A DNA stretch of 64,000 bases from the NCBI GenBank assembly GCA_035546295.1, contig DATKBT010000030.1, positions 17,134-81,133 on the forward strand, written 5' to 3'. The DNA is from Thermoanaerobaculia bacterium (GTDB lineage Bacteria > Acidobacteriota > Thermoanaerobaculia > Multivoradales > Multivoraceae). Below are positions 11,996 to 61,921 of the stretch, one piece after another. Position numbers and translations under genes: made by a program. Every line of letters begins with the position of its first letter. The stretch's first letter is position 1. A model generated the notes under the pieces. The model had not been told where the DNA came from. It saw only the letters and a list, made by a program, of their open reading frames with translations, and did no database searches.

Positions 11996-12703
11996 ATGAA
12001 GGTCCGCCTGCTCGCCTTCGCCAGCGCCAGCGACGCGGTCGGCGCCTCCGAGCTCGAGCTCGAGCTGGACCCGGGATTCACGGTCGCGCAGCTCAAGGCC
12101 CGCCTCGAGCGAGAGCACCCCACGCTCGCCGGCCTTTGGGGGCGCATCGCGGTGGCTGTCGATGGCGAGCTGGCCGCCGACGCAGACCAGCTCGAGGAGG
12201 GCTCCGAGGTGGCCTTGCTGCCCCCGGTCTCGGGCGGCTCGGGCGCCGATCGGCCGGTCGGCGCTCGCGTCGCGATCACCGAGGAGCCGCTCGACGTCGC
12301 AGCGGTCACGGCTACGGTCGCGGGCGCCGACTGCGGCGCCGAGGTCCTCTTCCTCGGGGTGGTGCGCGATCATCACGGTGGGCGTCGGGTCGAGCGGCTG
12401 ACCTACACCGCCTACCGGCCGATGGCGCTCGAGCGGATGCGACGGATCGCCGCCGAGCTCGAGCAGGAGAGCGGCGGCCCGACCCGCGTCGCCATCGTGC
12501 ATCGTCTCGGCACCCTCGAGCCGGGGGTCCCGAGCGTGGCGATCGCGGTCGCCTCGCCGCATCGACAGGAGGCGTACGAGGCGAGCCGGCGCGCGCTCGA
12601 GCGGCTCAAGGCCGAGGTTCCGATCTGGAAGCGCGAGCACTACGCCGGGGGAGACGCGTCCTGGCGCGAGGAGGAGTCGCTGGCCTCTGAGTGTGCTGGC
12701 TAG
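11996..12703 (+). CDS. moaE: Molybdopterin synthase MoaD-MoaE fusion
   Basis: MKVRLLAFAS..VALLPPVSGG (MoaD), then GAEVLFLGVVRD, VHRLG, ASPHRQEAY, LKAEVPIWKRE (MoaE). Confidence 0.93.
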   Translation: MKVRLLAFASASDAVGASELELELDPGFTVAQLKARLEREHPTLAGLWGRIAVAVDGELAADADQLEEGSEVALLPPVSGGSGADRPVGARVAITEEPLDVAAVTATVAGADCGAEVLFLGVVRDHHGGRRVERLTYTAYRPMALERMRRIAAELEQESGGPTRVAIVHRLGTLEPGVPSVAIAVASPHRQEAYEASRRALERLKAEVPIWKREHYAGGDASWREEESLASECAG

Positions 12704-12713
12704 CTCATGTTCC

Positions 12714-12817
12714 CTAAGGTCGACTAGGCCTGAAATCGTTGATTGCAGGCCGTTTGGGTCCTGCTTGAATCGAACTTTGACCCCTTTGGGAACTTCCTGC
12801 TGGCCTAGTCGACCTAG
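12714..12817 (-). mobile_element. MITE-like palindromic module B (inverted, diverged copy)
   Basis: Perfect 14-bp inverted repeat AGGTCGACTAGGCC (12717-12730) / GGCCTAGTCGACCT (12802-12815). The reverse complement shares CTAGGTCGACTAGGCCAGC.GGAAG and GGTCAAAGTTCGAT with loci 48170 and 61710. Confidence 0.7.
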
Positions 12818-23877: not shown

Positions 23878-24022
23878 CCGGTTCCTGGTCCCGGGAACCC
23901 TTCGGGTCCCAGTGCAGGAGGCTCCCGCGACCGGAACCGCACGGCCATCTCCAGCCGGCCGGCGTGGCGACGCCGATCGGTCGGGACGAGCAGCCCGCGC
24001 TGCTCGGGGATAGGAGGACGGG

Positions 24023-25297
24023 GTGGCAGCGAGCAAGAAGACGGCATCGGGCGCAGCGAAGAAGTCTCGGCGTTCGGGAGCAGGCTCTCGGGGCGCTTCC
24101 TCGAAGAAGAGCCGGTCGAGGACGGCGGCTCGAAAGCAGACGTCCAAGAAGAAGGCGACGGCCCGTAAGCCGGCGGCCCGTGGGTCGTCGAAGCCGTCCA
24201 CCGGCAGGAAGACGACCAGCAAGAAGACGTCCAGCAAGAAGACGACGGGCAAAACGACGACCACCAAGAAGACGGCCAAGAAGACGGCCAAGAAGCCGGC
24301 CAAGAAGCCGGCTCGCTCGGCCGCGTCCAAAAGGAGCTCCAGCTCGAGCTCTGAGAGGCGGCGGGCCGCGACCTCGAAGGCCTCCGGCAAGACGGTGAAG
24401 AAGAACGTCCCGAAGAAGAAGAAGACGAAGAAGACGAACAGGGCAGCGGCGTCCCGATCCACCACCGGCGCCGGCAGCGGCACTCGCCAGTCCGCCTCGT
24501 CCGGCAAGTCCGCTAGGAACAAGCCCCGAGCGGCAATGCGCTCAACCAGCAAATCGCCAGCCAAGAAGTCGACGGCCAAGAAGTCGACAGCCAAGAAGTC
24601 GACAGCCAAGAAGTCGACGGCCCGAAGGTCGACGGGGAGCGCGTCCTCGAGACGCAGGTCCGCCGCAAAGCGGTCGGCCGCCGGAACAGCTGCGAGCAAG
24701 AAGAGCCCCACCAAGAAGAGCCCCACCAAGAAGACCTCGCCCAAGAAGGTCTCCACCAAGAAGACCACCAGCAGGAAGAAGACTTCGGCGAAGGTGACAG
24801 CCAAGAGAACGAGTGCGAGCAAGCGCGCCGTCGGTGCATCGAAGCGCAAACGTTCGGCGGCGGCGACCGAGTCCCCGCCGCCGAAGCGGCTACGTCTCTC
24901 CTCCCAGCGCATCAGCCAGGGTCCGCCGCAGGCGACCGAGCAGGCGGATCAGGCCGCGCTGCGCGAGGCGCTGATCGCAAAGCGCGCCGAGGTCCTGCAG
25001 CTCTACGAGCTGGACGTGCGAGCGGGCCTCAAGGGAGCTTCCTCGGACGGCAACGAGGACATCGTCGACCTCGCCAACAGCGCCTACAACCGCGAGCTGA
25101 GCTTCGCCATCTCCGACAGCGAGCGTGAGCTGCTCCAGCAGATCGACGAGGCGCTCGCCCGAATGGAGGAGGGCAGCTTCGGAGCCTGCACGTCCTGCGG
25201 CCAACCGATCGCCTCACCGCGGTTGCGGGCGATTCCCTGGGCGCGGTACTGTATCGACTGCCAAGAGCTTGAAGAGCGTGGCCTGCTCCGGGAGTGA
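24023..25297 (+). CDS. DksA/TraR C4 zinc-finger protein with a long histone-H1-like Lys/Ser/Thr/Ala-rich N-terminus
   Basis: RBS AGGAGG before GTG; C-terminal DIVDLA, CTSC..RLRAIPWARYCIDCQE; N-terminal KKSTA repeats. Confidence 0.85.
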   Translation: MAASKKTASGAAKKSRRSGAGSRGASSKKSRSRTAARKQTSKKKATARKPAARGSSKPSTGRKTTSKKTSSKKTTGKTTTTKKTAKKTAKKPAKKPARSAASKRSSSSSSERRRAATSKASGKTVKKNVPKKKKTKKTNRAAASRSTTGAGSGTRQSASSGKSARNKPRAAMRSTSKSPAKKSTAKKSTAKKSTAKKSTARRSTGSASSRRRSAAKRSAAGTAASKKSPTKKSPTKKTSPKKVSTKKTTSRKKTSAKVTAKRTSASKRAVGASKRKRSAAATESPPPKRLRLSSQRISQGPPQATEQADQAALREALIAKRAEVLQLYELDVRAGLKGASSDGNEDIVDLANSAYNRELSFAISDSERELLQQIDEALARMEEGSFGACTSCGQPIASPRLRAIPWARYCIDCQELEERGLLRE

Positions 25298-28269: not shown

Positions 28270-29094
28270 GTGCCGGAGCTTCCCGAGGTCGAGGTCCTGC
28301 GGCGCTCGCTCGAGGCCCGCGTGCTGGGCGACCGGGTGGAGTCGGTGGCCGTCCGGTTCCCGACCCTGCGCGAGCCGATCTCAGCGCCGGTGCTACGCCG
28401 GCGACTCGCCGGCCGGCGGATCGAGCGGCTGCGACGGCGGGCCAAGTACCTGCTGATGGACGTCGAGGGGGGATCCACGCTGGTCGTCCACCTCGGCATG
28501 AGCGGGCGCCTGCTGGTGGTTCCCGCCGGCGAGCCGAGCGCTCCCCACGAGCACGTCGTGATCTCGCTCGCGTCGGGACGGACCCTGCGCTTTCGCGACC
28601 CGCGGCGCTTCGGCCTGCTGCTGGCGCTGCCGACCGGACGGATCGAGCGGGATCGCCACTTCCGCCACCTCGGGGTCGAGCCGCTCGAGAGCGGCTTCGA
28701 CGGAGCACGGCTCGCGGCGAAGGCCCGAGGCCGTTTCGGGCCCGTCAAGAGCTTCTTGATGGACGCCGCGATCGTCGTGGGAGTGGGCAACATCTACGCC
28801 TGCGAGGCCCTCCACCTGGCGGGGATCCACCCTGCCCGCTCGGTCGCACGGATCTCGCAAAGGCGATTCGACGGCCTCGCCTCGGCGGTGCGCGACGTCC
28901 TCGGCCGCGCCATCGCGGAGGGCGGCACCACGCTCAACGACTTCGCCGACGCCGACGGCGAGCCGGGGTACTTCGCGGTCTCGCTCCACGTCTACGGGCG
29001 CGAGGGGGAGCCCTGCCTGCGCTGCGGCGCCATCGTGCGGCGCATCGTGCAGTCGAACCGCTCCACCTTCTACTGTCCGCGCTGTCAGCGCTAG
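28270..29094 (+). CDS. mutM: Formamidopyrimidine-DNA glycosylase
   Basis: PELPEVE, RRAKYL, HLGMSG, DPRRFG, GVGNIYACE, CLRC..CPRCQ zinc finger. Confidence 0.97.
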   Translation: MPELPEVEVLRRSLEARVLGDRVESVAVRFPTLREPISAPVLRRRLAGRRIERLRRRAKYLLMDVEGGSTLVVHLGMSGRLLVVPAGEPSAPHEHVVISLASGRTLRFRDPRRFGLLLALPTGRIERDRHFRHLGVEPLESGFDGARLAAKARGRFGPVKSFLMDAAIVVGVGNIYACEALHLAGIHPARSVARISQRRFDGLASAVRDVLGRAIAEGGTTLNDFADADGEPGYFAVSLHVYGREGEPCLRCGAIVRRIVQSNRSTFYCPRCQR

Positions 29095-29423
29095 CCTCCG
29101 ATCTGCTTGGGCGCGCTGCGCGCGCTATAGCAGATCTCCGGCTAGCGATTCCTCGCGGCTCCAAGCGCCTCCGGCGCGTCGCCGCGGACAGCCGTAGAAC
29201 CGGATCTCGGAGATTGACGAAGTCTCGAATCTCCCTTCACGGGTTGCTCCGCAGCATCTCTCGAGTCGATCCGCGACCGGCTCCAACCCGAGCTGAGGCG
29301 CAGCCGAAGCGAGCGAAGGTGAGGTGCGGCGAGCCTGCGAGTCGTACCCAGCCCAGCGCCTTCGACGCGTCGCCGGGGAACAGCCGTAGAAGCGGATCTT
29401 GAAGACTCCGGCCAGGCTCCTAG
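29091..29423. repeat. CTAG-bounded mosaic palindromic repeat locus (modules A + D + spacer + D')
   Basis: 29091-29145 is nearly identical to 48119-48173; 29142-29201 is nearly identical to 48435-48494; internal direct repeat at 29164-29207 / 29355-29399; CTAG at 29091, 29142 and 29420. Confidence 0.85.
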
Positions 29424-47401: not shown

Positions 47402-48115
47402 ATGGCATCGAACGCGCGTCAAGGGCCGCTCCGTCTCTTCGTCGTCCGTCACGGGCAGGTGGCCGCGAACCGTGAGTATCGCTACGTCGGCGATCGCGAC
47501 GACCCGCTCACCGATCTGGGGCGTCGTCAAGCCGCCGCGATCGCCGAGGCGCTCGGCTCCCTGCGCGTGGACGGGCGCCCGCTGCCCGTCGCTGGCCTGA
47601 TCTCGAGCCCGCGCCAGCGTGCGCGCGACACCGCCCTGGCGATCGCGGACGCGCTCGGCCGCGAGCTCGAGATCGACCAGCGCCTCGCCGAGCAGTCGTA
47701 CGGCGGGTGGGAGGGGCTGACTCGCGACGAGGTGCGCGCGCTCTCGGAGGAGGACGCGGTCCACCTCGAGCGGATCGATGCCGATCCGACCCTGTCGCCC
47801 CCGGGAGGCGAGTCGCTGAGCACGGCACAGCGTCGCGTCGTCTCGCTGGTCGACGAGCTCGCAGGCGGCGCGACGGAGGGCGCAGTCGTCCTGGTCAGCC
47901 ACGTCGGACCCATCAAGACGCTGATCGCGGCCGCCCTCGACCTGCCGCTGGTCAACCTCCGGCGGCTGTTCCTCGACCTGGCGACGCTCACCGTCATCGA
48001 CTGGTCGCAGCCCCCCGTGCTGCGGCTGTTCAACCATCACGCCCATCTCGGCTTCGATCGGGCCCGATGGTTGGAGAGCTCGCGCTCCGAGTCGCTGGCT
48101 CCGCCTCCGCGCTGA
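47402..48115 (+). CDS. Histidine phosphatase family protein
   Basis: VRHGQ, SSPRQRA, EQSYGGWEG, PPGGES, VSHVG. Confidence 0.9.
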   Translation: MASNARQGPLRLFVVRHGQVAANREYRYVGDRDDPLTDLGRRQAAAIAEALGSLRVDGRPLPVAGLISSPRQRARDTALAIADALGRELEIDQRLAEQSYGGWEGLTRDEVRALSEEDAVHLERIDADPTLSPPGGESLSTAQRRVVSLVDELAGGATEGAVVLVSHVGPIKTLIAAALDLPLVNLRRLFLDLATLTVIDWSQPPVLRLFNHHAHLGFDRARWLESSRSESLAPPPR

Positions 48116-48118
48116 CGC

Positions 48119-48542
48119 CTAGCCTCCGATCTGCTTGGGCGCGCTGCGCGCGCTGTAGCAGATCTCCGGCTAGGTCGACTAGGCCAGCGGGAAGTTCTTG
48201 CCTGCCTTGCGGCAGGCGGCGGTCGTTGGCCTCGCGCAAGCGCGAGACCAAGGCTCACAAGACGGTCAAAGTTCGATCAAGCCGCTGCGCTCGCCCAGAG
48301 AAACGGCTGTGGCCTGGTCGACCCAACCGCGCCCGCTTGCGGGCTTGCGGCGCACGAGTGATCGGCTAGCGGGCTCGTGGTATGACCGCCGCGACCTCGC
48401 TGCTCGTTGGGGAGTGGTGAACACCACGAGCCCGCTAGCGATTTCTCGCGGCTTCAAGCGCCTCCGGCGCGTCGCCGCGGACAGCCGGAGAACCGAGCGA
48501 CTGTTGCACCGCCCACTGCCAGTTCCTCGGACAGCATCCTAG
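48119..48542. mobile_element. CTAG-bounded mosaic repeat locus, modules A-B-B2-C-D (nested MITE-like)
   Basis: CTAG at 48119, 48170, 48179, 48366, 48435 and 48539; modules are shared with loci 29091, 61710 and 12714. Confidence 0.8.
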
Positions 48543-48671
48543 GGCGCGAAGAGTGGCGAGAGCACGACTCGCGCCGCGAGCGGCTGCGTGTCGATCCCGA
48601 GCTTCTCCGGCCGTCGGGTAGAGTTCGCGACTCTTCCTGGAGGCGCGGCGGGCAACGACGGAGATGAGACG

Positions 48672-50192
48672 ATGAGCAGACCGACCGGCTCCGAGCTGAT
48701 GGAGAGGATCGTCGCGCTGGCGAAGCGGCGCGGCTTCGTCTTCCCGGCGTCCGAGATCTACGGCGGCGTCAACGGCTTCTGGGACTACGGCCCGCTGGGC
48801 GTCCAGCTCAAGAACAACCTCCGTGACGCCTGGTGGCACGACACCGTGCTCTGTCCTCCGATCGGGCCCGACGGCCATCCGGTCGACGTCGTCGGCCTGG
48901 ACTCGGCGATCATCCAGAACCCGCGGGTGTGGGAGGCGAGCGGACACGTCGCCGGGTTCTCGGACCCGATGGTCGACTGCCGGGAGACCAAGGCCCGCTA
49001 TCGCGCCGATCACCTCCAGGTGCTCCTCTTCGATGGCGCCGGGGAGGGGGAGCAGGCGCTGCTCGTCTTCGTCGAAGGCGAGCCCGAGCCGGCGCTCAAG
49101 CGGGCGCAGAAGGTGCTGAGGCGCAAGGTCGACCTCGACGAGGCCCAGCGGATGCCGTTCTCGTCGTTGAGCGCAGACCAGCGGGAGCGGGTGTGGGCGC
49201 CCGGCGCCTCGGAGCCGGGAACGCTGACCGCCCCGCGTGAGTTCAACCTCATGTTCCGGACCAGGATCGGCGCCACCAGCGGCGACGACAACGTCGCCTA
49301 CCTCCGGCCCGAGACCGCCCAGGGAATCTTCCTCAACTACAAGAACGTCGTCGACACGACGAGGGTGAAGATCCCCTTCGGCATCGCCCAGGTCGGCAAG
49401 GCCTTCCGCAACGAGGTCACGCCGCGCAACTTCATCTTCCGCAGCCGCGAGTTCGAGCAGATGGAGATGGAGTGGTTCTGCGAGCCCGAAGAGGCGCCGA
49501 GGTGGTTCGAGTTCTGGGTGAACGAGCGGCTGGAGTGGTGGAAGTCGGTGGGAGTCTCCGAGGCCAATCTCCGGCTGCGCAAGCACGAGGCGGACGAGCT
49601 GGCCCACTACGCCAAGAGCGGTGAGGGGACCTACGACGTCGAGTACCGCTACCCGTTCACGGAACCCGGGTTCGGCGAGCTCGAGGGAATCGCACACCGG
49701 GGCTGCTTCGACCTCGAGCAGCATCAGGAGTGGAGCAAGACGAAGCTCGAGGCCTTCGATCCTCAGACCCAGAGGCGGTTCCTGCCCCACGTGATCGAGC
49801 CGGCGAGCGGGCTGACCCGCGGGGTCCTGGTGCTGCTCTGCGAGGCGTACGACGTCGATCCCGAGCGACCTTCTCCCGAGATCATGCGCTTTCCCCCGCG
49901 TCTGGCGCCGATCAAGGCCGGGATCTTTCCACTGGTCGCCAAGGCCGGAATGCCCGAGATCGCCGAGAAGCTCTACTTGGACCTGAGGGCGCGCTTCCCT
50001 GCTCAGTTCGACGTCAAGCAGTCGATCGGCAAGCGCTACGCGCGCATGGACGAGGCCGGGACACCCTACTGCTTCACCATCGACGGCCAGTCGGTCGAGG
50101 ACCAGACCGTCACGGTTCGCGATCGGGACACGGGGAGCCAGGAGCGGATCGCGCTCGACGCAGTGGCGGGCTTCCTGAGCGAGCGCGTGTGA
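48672..50192 (+). CDS. glyQS: Glycine--tRNA ligase, homodimeric alpha2 type
   Basis: KRRGFVFPASEIYGG, FNLMF, YLRPETAQGIF, QVGKAFRNEVTP, FRSREFEQME, HVIEP, SIGKRYARMDEAGTPYC. Confidence 0.96.
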   Translation: MSRPTGSELMERIVALAKRRGFVFPASEIYGGVNGFWDYGPLGVQLKNNLRDAWWHDTVLCPPIGPDGHPVDVVGLDSAIIQNPRVWEASGHVAGFSDPMVDCRETKARYRADHLQVLLFDGAGEGEQALLVFVEGEPEPALKRAQKVLRRKVDLDEAQRMPFSSLSADQRERVWAPGASEPGTLTAPREFNLMFRTRIGATSGDDNVAYLRPETAQGIFLNYKNVVDTTRVKIPFGIAQVGKAFRNEVTPRNFIFRSREFEQMEMEWFCEPEEAPRWFEFWVNERLEWWKSVGVSEANLRLRKHEADELAHYAKSGEGTYDVEYRYPFTEPGFGELEGIAHRGCFDLEQHQEWSKTKLEAFDPQTQRRFLPHVIEPASGLTRGVLVLLCEAYDVDPERPSPEIMRFPPRLAPIKAGIFPLVAKAGMPEIAEKLYLDLRARFPAQFDVKQSIGKRYARMDEAGTPYCFTIDGQSVEDQTVTVRDRDTGSQERIALDAVAGFLSERV

Positions 50193-54554: not shown

Positions 54555-54630
54555 GCTGCCGAGCACCGAACAGGCTGCCGAGCACGGAACAGGCTGCCGA
54601 GCACCGAACAGGCTGCTCGAGCTCCGAAGA
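54555..54630 (+). repeat. Tandem repeat, 19 bp x 3 plus a degenerate fourth unit (GCTGCCGAGCACCGAACAG)
   Basis: Read directly, between the convergent sspB and TolB-like genes. Confidence 0.9.
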
Positions 54631-54711
54631 GGAGGGTCCCCCATCCGGGGTCGGGCCGGGCCTGCGCCCCCGGATCCGCGTCCTCGCGCGGCCACCGCTC
54701 CGTCGGCGGCT

Positions 54712-61683: not shown

Positions 61684-61709
61684 CGGGAGTCCAGCCGCTG
61701 CGCCGGCGG

Positions 61710-61921
61710 CTAGGTCGACTAGGCCAGCGGGAAGCTCACAGAATGGTCAAAGTTCGATCAAGCCGCTGCGCTCGCCCAGAGAAACGGCTGTGGCCTGGTC
61801 GACCCAGCCGCGCCCGCTTGCGGGCTTGCGGCGCACGAGTGATCGGCTAGCGTGCTCGTGGTATGACCGCGCCGCGACCTCGCTGCTCGTTGGGGAGTGG
61901 TGAACACCACGAGCCCGCTGG
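61710..61921. mobile_element. CTAG-bounded module B-B2-C, second copy of the unit at 48170-48438
   Basis: Near-identical to 48170-48194 plus 48254-48438; CTAG at 61710, 61719 and 61847; right end degenerate (CTGG). Confidence 0.8.

Follow-up and report, generated by a model that had tools for sequence, protein, structure and literature searches.

Nested CTAG-bounded hairpin repeats in the intergenic spacers of a Thermoanaerobaculia bacterium: a novel family of selfish repeats of a known kind

The window, by which we mean the whole stretch of 64 kb analysed here (G+C content 70.9%), bears small repeats in four intergenic spacers: between fpg and a uridine kinase gene at 29 kb, between the genes of a His_Phos_1 phosphatase and of glycyl-tRNA synthetase (glyS) at 48 kb, between a GGDEF gene and a GlnE-like gene at 61.7 kb, and between MoaE and a carboxyltransferase gene at 12.8 kb. 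The closest named relative of the GlyRS of the window, at 82% identity, belongs to a Thermoanaerobaculia MAG. Among the coding sequences, an ORF at 24014-25294 on the plus strand contains long lysine-rich tandem repeats of 15 nt (KKT/KKS), is histone-H1-like and ends in a DksA/TraR C4 zinc finger.

The 48.1-kb spacer, which lies 5' of glyS, is a pile-up of small hairpin-forming repeats (Table 1), the first of which, module A, begins 3 nt past the His_Phos_1 stop codon. Modules A and D of this spacer are also found at 29.1 kb, joined there through a single CTAG (29142-29145), whereas at 48.1 kb they are parted by an insert of 261 bp (48174-48434) with a CTAG on either side (at 48170 and at 48435). 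This pair of an empty and a filled site had been the main claim of an earlier note on this DNA, and both the reading of the sequence and a BLAST of the window against itself confirm it: the two copies of A (29091-29145 and 48119-48173) are 98% identical (E=2e-21) and the two copies of D (29141-29202 and 48434-48495) are 95% identical (E=5e-22). The flanks of the two sites differ in their genes, and hence neither site is a deletion product of the other. The inverted repeats announced for the insert are also there, a perfect one of 16 bp in module C (48366-48381 / 48423-48438) and one of 13 bp with one mismatch in module B (arms in Table 1). Module D, on the other hand, had been drawn too long: it was thought to extend to the CTAG at 48539, but the similarity stops near 48508 and 29213.

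Table 1. Repeat modules of the window, and copies of the D repeat at related loci (numbered L001 and so on)
Feature	Position	Strand	Remarks
Module A, copy 1	48119..48173	+	CTAG-47 nt-CTAG; nested hairpin when folded
Module A, copy 2	29091..29145	+	fpg TAG stop codon inside its first CTAG
BC composite, copy 1	48170..48438	+	269 bp counting both CTAGs
BC copy 1, parts on the B side	B left arm 48173-48185; optional X 48195-48252; conserved core 48264-48282; B right arm 48311-48323		
BC copy 1, parts on the C side	B2 hairpin ~48326-48365; C hairpin 48366-48438		
BC composite, copy 2	61710..61921	+	no X module; terminal CTAG decayed to CTGG
B-only copy, no C	12700..12817	-	arms GGTCGACTAGGCC / GGCCTAGTCGACC, then B2 tail
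Module D at 48.1 kb	48435..48508	+	starts at CTAG; D-family profile match E=9e-18
Module D at 29.1 kb	29142..29213	+	fused to A through one CTAG ("empty" site of BC)
Second D-type unit	29255..29404	+	internal "E" insert of ~70 nt; homologous to L029 13786-13904
D copies in L028-L030	L028 8760-8834; L029 13779-13960(-), 15887-15959, 18368-18419; L030 9742-9816(-)		
D copies in L032 and L034	L032 12924-13130; L034 5908-5966		

The insert is a composite B-B2-C, hereafter BC, which is 97% identical to a copy in a Thermoanaerobaculia MAG (L001) and 94% identical to the copy at 61.7 kb. The same insert had been said to stand alone at 61710. It does recur there, where it takes up 212 of the 246 bp that separate the convergently oriented GGDEF and GlnE-like genes, but the two copies are not identical: 58 bp (48195-48252, two small hairpins which we call X) are missing at 61.7 kb, and 48167-48194 matches 61707-61734 at 100% while 48253-48436 matches 61734-61919 at 96%. 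A third, diverged member of the family, overlooked in the earlier note, consists of B and the B2 tail without C and spans the interval from the CTAG at 12814-12817 to the CTAG at 12700-12703, the latter containing the stop codon of MoaE; its similarity to BC covers 12714-12817 on the minus strand. A profile search of the window with nhmmer detected no diverged BC copies beyond these three. The window thus holds three BC-family, two A and three D copies, all extragenic, with BLAST E-values for the repeat matches ranging from 1e-21 to 1e-85.

We then looked at the BC family as a whole. An exact-pattern scan of species-representative genomes yielded two copies, one in the Thermoanaerobaculia MAG and one in a MAG assigned to Vicinamibacteria, and a scan of JGI metagenomes yielded 22 additional loci. 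The family so far comprises 28 copies of 205-287 bp at 27 distinct loci, in unrelated contexts on Thermoanaerobaculia-type contigs and in independent assemblies (NCBI MAGs and three JGI metagenomes). An nhmmer search of the relatives' loci for further copies gave matches in L032 and L033 only, to the B2-C part (C-type hairpins), and BC had no matches in viral contigs (searched with two patterns) or in plasmids (searched with BLAST). The copy in the Vicinamibacteria MAG (L002), which is assigned to a different class of acidobacteria, either arrived there by horizontal transfer or owes its place to faulty binning; it follows a Peptidase_M78 / HTH (ImmA/IrrE-like) gene pair and lies beside a SMODS nucleotidyltransferase gene, a context (L002 1-3700) which looks like a defence island. 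Other copies adjoin toxin genes, namely HicA (L001 1192-1467), ParE (L005 563-880) and PIN (L023 2-400), with the junction exactly on the stop codon in the first two and 16-17 nt past it in the third.

The architecture of BC was established on an alignment of 18 complete copies. From left to right, one finds CTA, GGTCGACTAGGCCAGCGGGAAGTTC, X (58 bp; 0, 1 or 2 copies), ACAAAACGGTCAAAGTTCGATCAAGC, a variable segment of ~35 nt, GGCCTAGTCGACC, the B2 hairpin, an optional Y (~70 bp) and finally (C/G)TAGCGGGCTCGTGGT ... ACCACGAGCCCGCTA(G/C). This order is constant in all 18 copies, the hairpin sub-modules X and Y being optional, and pairwise identity averages 80% (range 70-97%). Head-to-tail tandems with a common CTAG occur in L003, L005 and L018. 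Terminal inverted repeats are absent from BC: its ends, GGTCGACTAGG... and ...GAGCCCGC, have only CTAG in common, and inverted-repeat arms are confined to the sub-modules B, C and A. The ~35-nt segment between the core and the right arm of B (48283-48310; alignment columns 124-160) exists in about six discrete types with a mean identity of 50%, and seems to retain a short stem (for example AGCCG/CGGCU vs CCGCG/CGCGG). X (48195-48252) and Y (L008 1648-1726, L023, L005) share a hairpin type, TTGGnC-stem-loop-stem-GnCCAA. X is flanked by direct repeats of YTC and Y by GAA, neither of them by CTAG, so that BC elements may be subject to another process of insertion or duplication in their interior.

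Are the modules independent of one another? B-type and C-type modules are indeed found apart, as would be expected of independent insertions: besides the B-only copy at 12.8 kb, B2 and C occur without B in L018, beginning at a host TGA, and C-type hairpins occur without the rest of BC twice in L032, adjoining D. In L003, L004 and L007, B is bounded by CTA...TAG on both sides, which suggests that B once entered the CTAG heading a B2-C unit. The earlier picture of combinatorial arrays of tiny modules is borne out as regards nesting and tandems at CTAGs, but not as regards BC itself, in which B-B2-C is fixed in 18 of 18 copies and neither X nor Y has CTAG at its borders. The modules appear to be only partly independent, and the composite mostly travels in one piece.

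The comparison with orthologous spacers, which had been proposed as a check, showed those of relatives to be short and empty, or to have a different CTAG-bounded hairpin at the same site. The spacer between His_Phos_1 and glyS, 556 bp in the window, measures 144 bp in L027 and L028 (GlyRS 87% identical) and 99 bp in L029 (82%); in L025 (88%) a PDZ gene precedes glyS at a distance of 88 bp. The spacers upstream of glyS in these four loci have neither A nor BC nor D, and that of L027 has a bare CTAG 5 nt past the stop codon. At the 3' end of fpg, the window has 331 bp with CTAG-A-CTAG-D followed by D/E, and L032 (Fpg 80% identical) has 151 bp with CTAG, a C-type hairpin and D; the spacers of L031 (84%) and L034 (77%), of 36 and 118 bp, are empty, and there the context of the stop codon is GTAG, not CTAG. 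At the 3' end of sspB, L028 has CTAG-A'-CTAG-D and L029 has CTAG-D without A', while the window, with a GTAG context, has neither. For the GGDEF/GlnE spacer, L030 has an unrelated sequence of 122 bp without BC which is not alignable and provides no precise empty site. The presence of hairpin-forming non-coding modules thus differs at paralogous as well as at orthologous sites, in support of the interpretation given in the earlier note.

The D family has units of ~65 nt with the consensus ...GGCTCC-[optional ~70-nt E insert]-AGCGCCTSCGGCGCGTCGCCGGGGAACAGCCG.AGAACCG. Nearly all copies lie directly past a stop codon and are co-oriented with the upstream gene; D is kept at the 3' end of sspB in two relatives, and L032 has three tandem copies of 75 nt. 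D may act at the RNA level, in 3'-UTRs or in the manner of a terminator, instead of or besides being mobile. In the window, the place directly past the sspB stop codon, where relatives have D, is occupied by three tandem copies of a 19-nt unit, GCTGCCGAGCACCGAACAG (54555-54632).

CTAG was found at essentially every junction and singly at empty sites, and the modules nest or stand in tandem at each other's CTAGs, as had been claimed. The pattern goes far beyond chance: this tetranucleotide is strongly avoided in the window, where base composition predicts 170 occurrences and a Markov model 69, and only 25 exist. Of these, 16 fall inside the four repeat-bearing spacers. GATC and TCGA, for their part, are at or above expectation, and the CTAGs outside the repeats mostly appear to overlap stop codons. 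The left flank of BC is CTA in 24 of 28 copies. In about 10 cases the TAG/CTA of a junction is the stop codon of a real gene: the TAG of the left junction is the in-frame stop of HicA (L001), Peptidase_M78 (L002), TPR proteins (L004, L014), Abhydrolase_3 (L016) and kynureninase (L024), and the CTA of the right end is a minus-strand stop of ParE (L005) and of a VWA protein (L006). Since CTAG is rare, most of the sites on offer are stop codons (C+TAG) or ends of the elements themselves, which explains both the position of the repeats after genes and their nesting. Gene ends adjoin the left junction of BC ~8 times and the right one ~5 times; as both junctions abut genes and both orientations occur, the position looks set by the choice of target and not by a function of the sense strand. 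CTAG-directed insertion and self-nesting of the modules are well supported by the sequences compared, and from parsimony we infer the direction, insertion as against deletion. The outcome which the earlier note had named as fatal to its own reading did not occur.

The predicted stems carry a signature of their own. In the predicted structure 97% of cells pair, a share that drops to 46% or less once partners are slid along each other. Counted on the plus strand, these pairs include 99 cells of G:U and 2 of A:C (16 pairs show G:U, two show A:C), counts which must be read with the fact that pairing on the plus strand had guided the choice of this structure and that the copies are related, so that the events are not independent. 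Mismatches of the G:U and not of the A:C kind point to selection on one folded strand, and we take this excess as suggestive. In the C stem of L032, two positions are altered on both sides, CGGGCTCG becoming CGGGGCCG, which makes two compensatory changes. The 5' xTAG of the C hairpin also covaries with its 3' CTAy: in 18 copies, related and therefore not independent events, we counted 13 CTAG..CTAG and 5 GTAG..CTAC with no exceptions. The GTAG type of C occurs in at least two subfamilies, and the left junction is CTAG in both classes. This covariation is not predicted by the duplication of host bases, be it TA, CTA or CTAG, while it is predicted by a guide tetranucleotide, a logic described for IS608 and proposed for REP/TnpA-REP (PMC8266576).

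We therefore favour, with a probability of about 0.55, the reading in which the 48.1-kb spacer consists of nested non-autonomous hairpin modules of the REP/BIME (or MITE-like) kind, most likely served in trans by an HUH/Y1 enzyme. Three families are involved: short CTAG-bounded hairpins (A, and A' and C-type hairpins in relatives), the BC composite, and D/E at the 3' ends of genes. Modules would enter a rare CTAG, very often one made up of a C and the TAG stop codon that follows it, and would leave a CTAG at both junctions. Every insertion would then make new CTAG targets, and this accounts for the nesting (BC within A-D) and for the head-to-tail tandems. One strand would fold into hairpins on which a single-strand HUH/Y1 enzyme, RAYT- or IS200/IS605-like and with its gene at another place in the genome, would act by cutting and rejoining within CTAG, for example after CT; such a cut at both ends and in the target would regenerate CTAG on both sides with no duplication. 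The tetranucleotide 5' of the terminal hairpin would guide cleavage, or the target site, 3' of the hairpin. The class of enzyme, the position of the cut and mobility at the present day are what we infer here; the sequences themselves show the families and how they are built, the variable presence of modules at paralogous and orthologous sites, the CTAGs of the junctions with their stop codons, and the conservation of the hairpins. Pfam searches detected no transposase, integrase or Y1/HUH domain in the ~40 ORFs of the window, in agreement with the earlier statement that the mobilising enzyme is not in the window, nor in ~30 ORFs of related loci.

The known systems were compared in turn. REP, BIME and REPIN sequences are "GTAG- and CGTC-tagged palindromic repeats" which occur as dimers and mosaics and whose TAG often serves as a stop codon (PMC3733652). 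Our repeats resemble them as short extragenic palindromes behind a conserved tetranucleotide, arranged in inverted pairs with variable linkers and in tandem mosaics, located at the 3' ends of genes with the TAG of the tag as stop codon, with hairpins maintained through compensatory changes and with a role as guide proposed for the tetranucleotide (PMC3733652, PMC8266576). Many extragenic copies, inverted pairs and tandem mosaics are present, in the window and in the tandems of L003, L005 and L018. As to the REP palindrome of 20-50 nt, A (47 nt) and A' (29 nt) are of this size, while C, with 65 nt, and B, with 100-160 nt, exceed it. The tag differs: where REPs have GTAG or CGTC at one end, nearly all modules here have the palindromic CTAG, at both ends, where it is also the target of insertion, and GTAG is found in only 5 of 18 C modules. 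Moreover, the arms of B and C are not palindromes, the commonest unit is a multi-hairpin composite of 205-287 bp, the host is an acidobacterium, and no RAYT gene (tnpA-REP, Y1 HUH) was found among the ~70 ORFs of the 64-kb window and related loci. Better precedents than IS5 and IS701 are IS630, with its TA within CTAG, and above all the tetranucleotide-tagged REP/BIME elements served by HUH enzymes, the mosaics of which the earlier note had also invoked; given their tag, the repeats are at most putative members of the GTAG/RAYT family. It is possible, but on the doubtful side, that they represent a third class of REP-like tags, CTAG, in Acidobacteriota, in which the palindromic tag would serve as both end and target; its modules would nest in one another and home to C+TAG stop codons, and the covariation of xTAG with CTAy would stem from programmable guide pairing by a single-strand DNA enzyme, perhaps a new one.

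With IS200/IS605 elements and PATEs, the repeats share the lack of terminal inverted repeats, hairpins at or near the ends, a fixed tetranucleotide, the lack of a clear duplication, a bias of the stems toward one strand and a guide tetranucleotide complementary to the cleavage site. They differ in that the left and right hairpins are unlike, that the hairpins start at the junction, and that there is no TnpA/TnpB and no omega-RNA-like Rfam match. Tested as a PATE, BC shows CTAG on the left, the element's own CTAG/CTAC on the right and a G:T bias on one strand; its hairpins differ, and a TA duplication is compatible with the data. The ends of IS200/IS605 elements usually bear similar hairpins, and the difference in sequence between the left (B) and right (C) hairpins of BC tells against an HUH enzyme, as does the tag CTAG, which is neither the GTAG nor the CGTC of the described REP superfamilies. 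The BOX elements of Streptococcus pneumoniae and the small non-coding repeats of Deinococcus are likewise modular, hairpin-rich intergenic mosaics with no known mobilising enzyme. The fixed order and variable internal number of modules in boxA-boxB(n)-boxC recall B-X(0-2)-...-C, but no sequence relationship is known, BOX is not known to target CTAG, and the host phylum is another one. No Rfam 15 family reaches its gathering threshold in the window; over 48100-48680 the best E-value is 0.027, well below the gathering score.

The main competitor of an HUH enzyme is a DDE transposase that duplicates TA (IS630/Tc1) or 3-4 bp (IS5/IS1031/IS701), the modules being its MITEs and the composite the outcome of nesting. 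IS5 and IS701 elements require terminal inverted repeats and an identical 4-bp YTAR duplication. This precedent, raised in the earlier note, does not hold beyond a CTAG-like target, for the composite lacks both features: a 4-bp CTAG duplication was rejected because in five copies a left-hand CTAG faces a right-hand CTAC, and L008 has TTAG against CTAC. A TA duplication is another matter. Each of B, C and A resembles a tiny TA-flanked element with inverted-repeat ends, and so does A', their arms of 12-16 bp being directly flanked by TA within CTAG; B is, as mentioned, bounded by CTA...TAG on both sides in three loci, and TA is the one part of the junction that practically every copy has at either side. 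IS630 is reported to favour the TA in 5'-CTAG-3' (Tenzen and Ohtsubo 1991, cited in PMC2170065). Such TA-flanked units would fit a TA-duplicating DDE transposase as well as an HUH enzyme, and for the single units B, C and A a transposase of the IS630 type is a serious rival. The unit which actually recurs (~27 times) is B-B2-C, however, the ends of which are alike in CTAG only; the four unrelated arm sequences would require four transposases, and A' measures merely ~33 bp. The base past the right-hand TA, which covaries with an internal base (13/13 and 5/5), is not predicted by a host duplication, and stem mismatches of the G:T and not the A:C type are unexpected if inverted repeats are recognised as double strands. 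No such transposase was found in the ~70 ORFs scanned, and in 187 kb no two B-type ends lay at the spacing of 1-2 kb that an autonomous partner would have. On balance we regard DDE-driven MITEs as an unlikely account of the spacer.

It could also be imagined that the repeats do not move at all and are structured RNA elements of 3'-UTRs (terminators, stabilisers or small RNAs), kept for their function and spread or lost by ordinary duplication, recombination and deletion between CTAGs. Most copies lie directly after stop codons, the stems have a strand-specific excess of G:U, all D copies seen are co-oriented with the upstream gene, with D kept at the 3' end of sspB in two relatives, and REPs are known to affect mRNA stability (PMC3733652). 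BC, however, occurs in both orientations, ~4 copies being co-oriented and ~4 antisense in tandem gene spacers; a strong orientation bias, such as a function in the 3'-UTR would bring, was rejected on this ground and because genes stand at both junctions. BC is furthermore found in 27 unrelated contexts at 70-97% identity, including places beside toxin-antitoxin and defence genes, it is missing from orthologous spacers, and a scan of the 48.1-kb spacer showed no U-tract terminator and no sigma-70 promoter, nor is there an Rfam family. We consider immobile RNA elements quite improbable, and a function at the RNA level would not preclude mobility. There is finally the thought that chance or faulty assembly produced the pattern, the A-D pair at 29.1 kb being a deletion derivative of the 48.1-kb array. 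Metagenome contigs often break or mis-join at repeats, and many of the related loci end within the element. Against this, the matches have E-values of 1e-21 to 1e-85, assemblies made independently, those of NCBI MAGs and of three JGI metagenomes, have the element, and the flanking genes at 29.1 and 48.1 kb are different; such an origin is hardly credible.

We conclude that these selfish intergenic repeats, more extensive than first thought, form a novel family of a kind already known. To speak of an undescribed system, as the earlier note did, is too strong, since elements of this kind are well known and what is new is the family or variant. Its interest lies in the fact that the spread of REP-like sequences is poorly understood and that clear cases of filled against empty sites are few. 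This lineage supplies several: the paralogous pair at 29.1 and 48.1 kb, orthologous CTAGs bearing different hairpins, and CTAG-less sites which stay empty. The covariation of xTAG with CTAy hints at a choice of target directed by a guide, and given the cognate enzyme both CTAG-directed insertion and the guide hypothesis are directly testable. In practice the repeats matter for annotation, since metagenome assemblies break at them and their junctions coincide with stop codons. They extend the tagged palindromic repeats to an uncultured class of acidobacteria.
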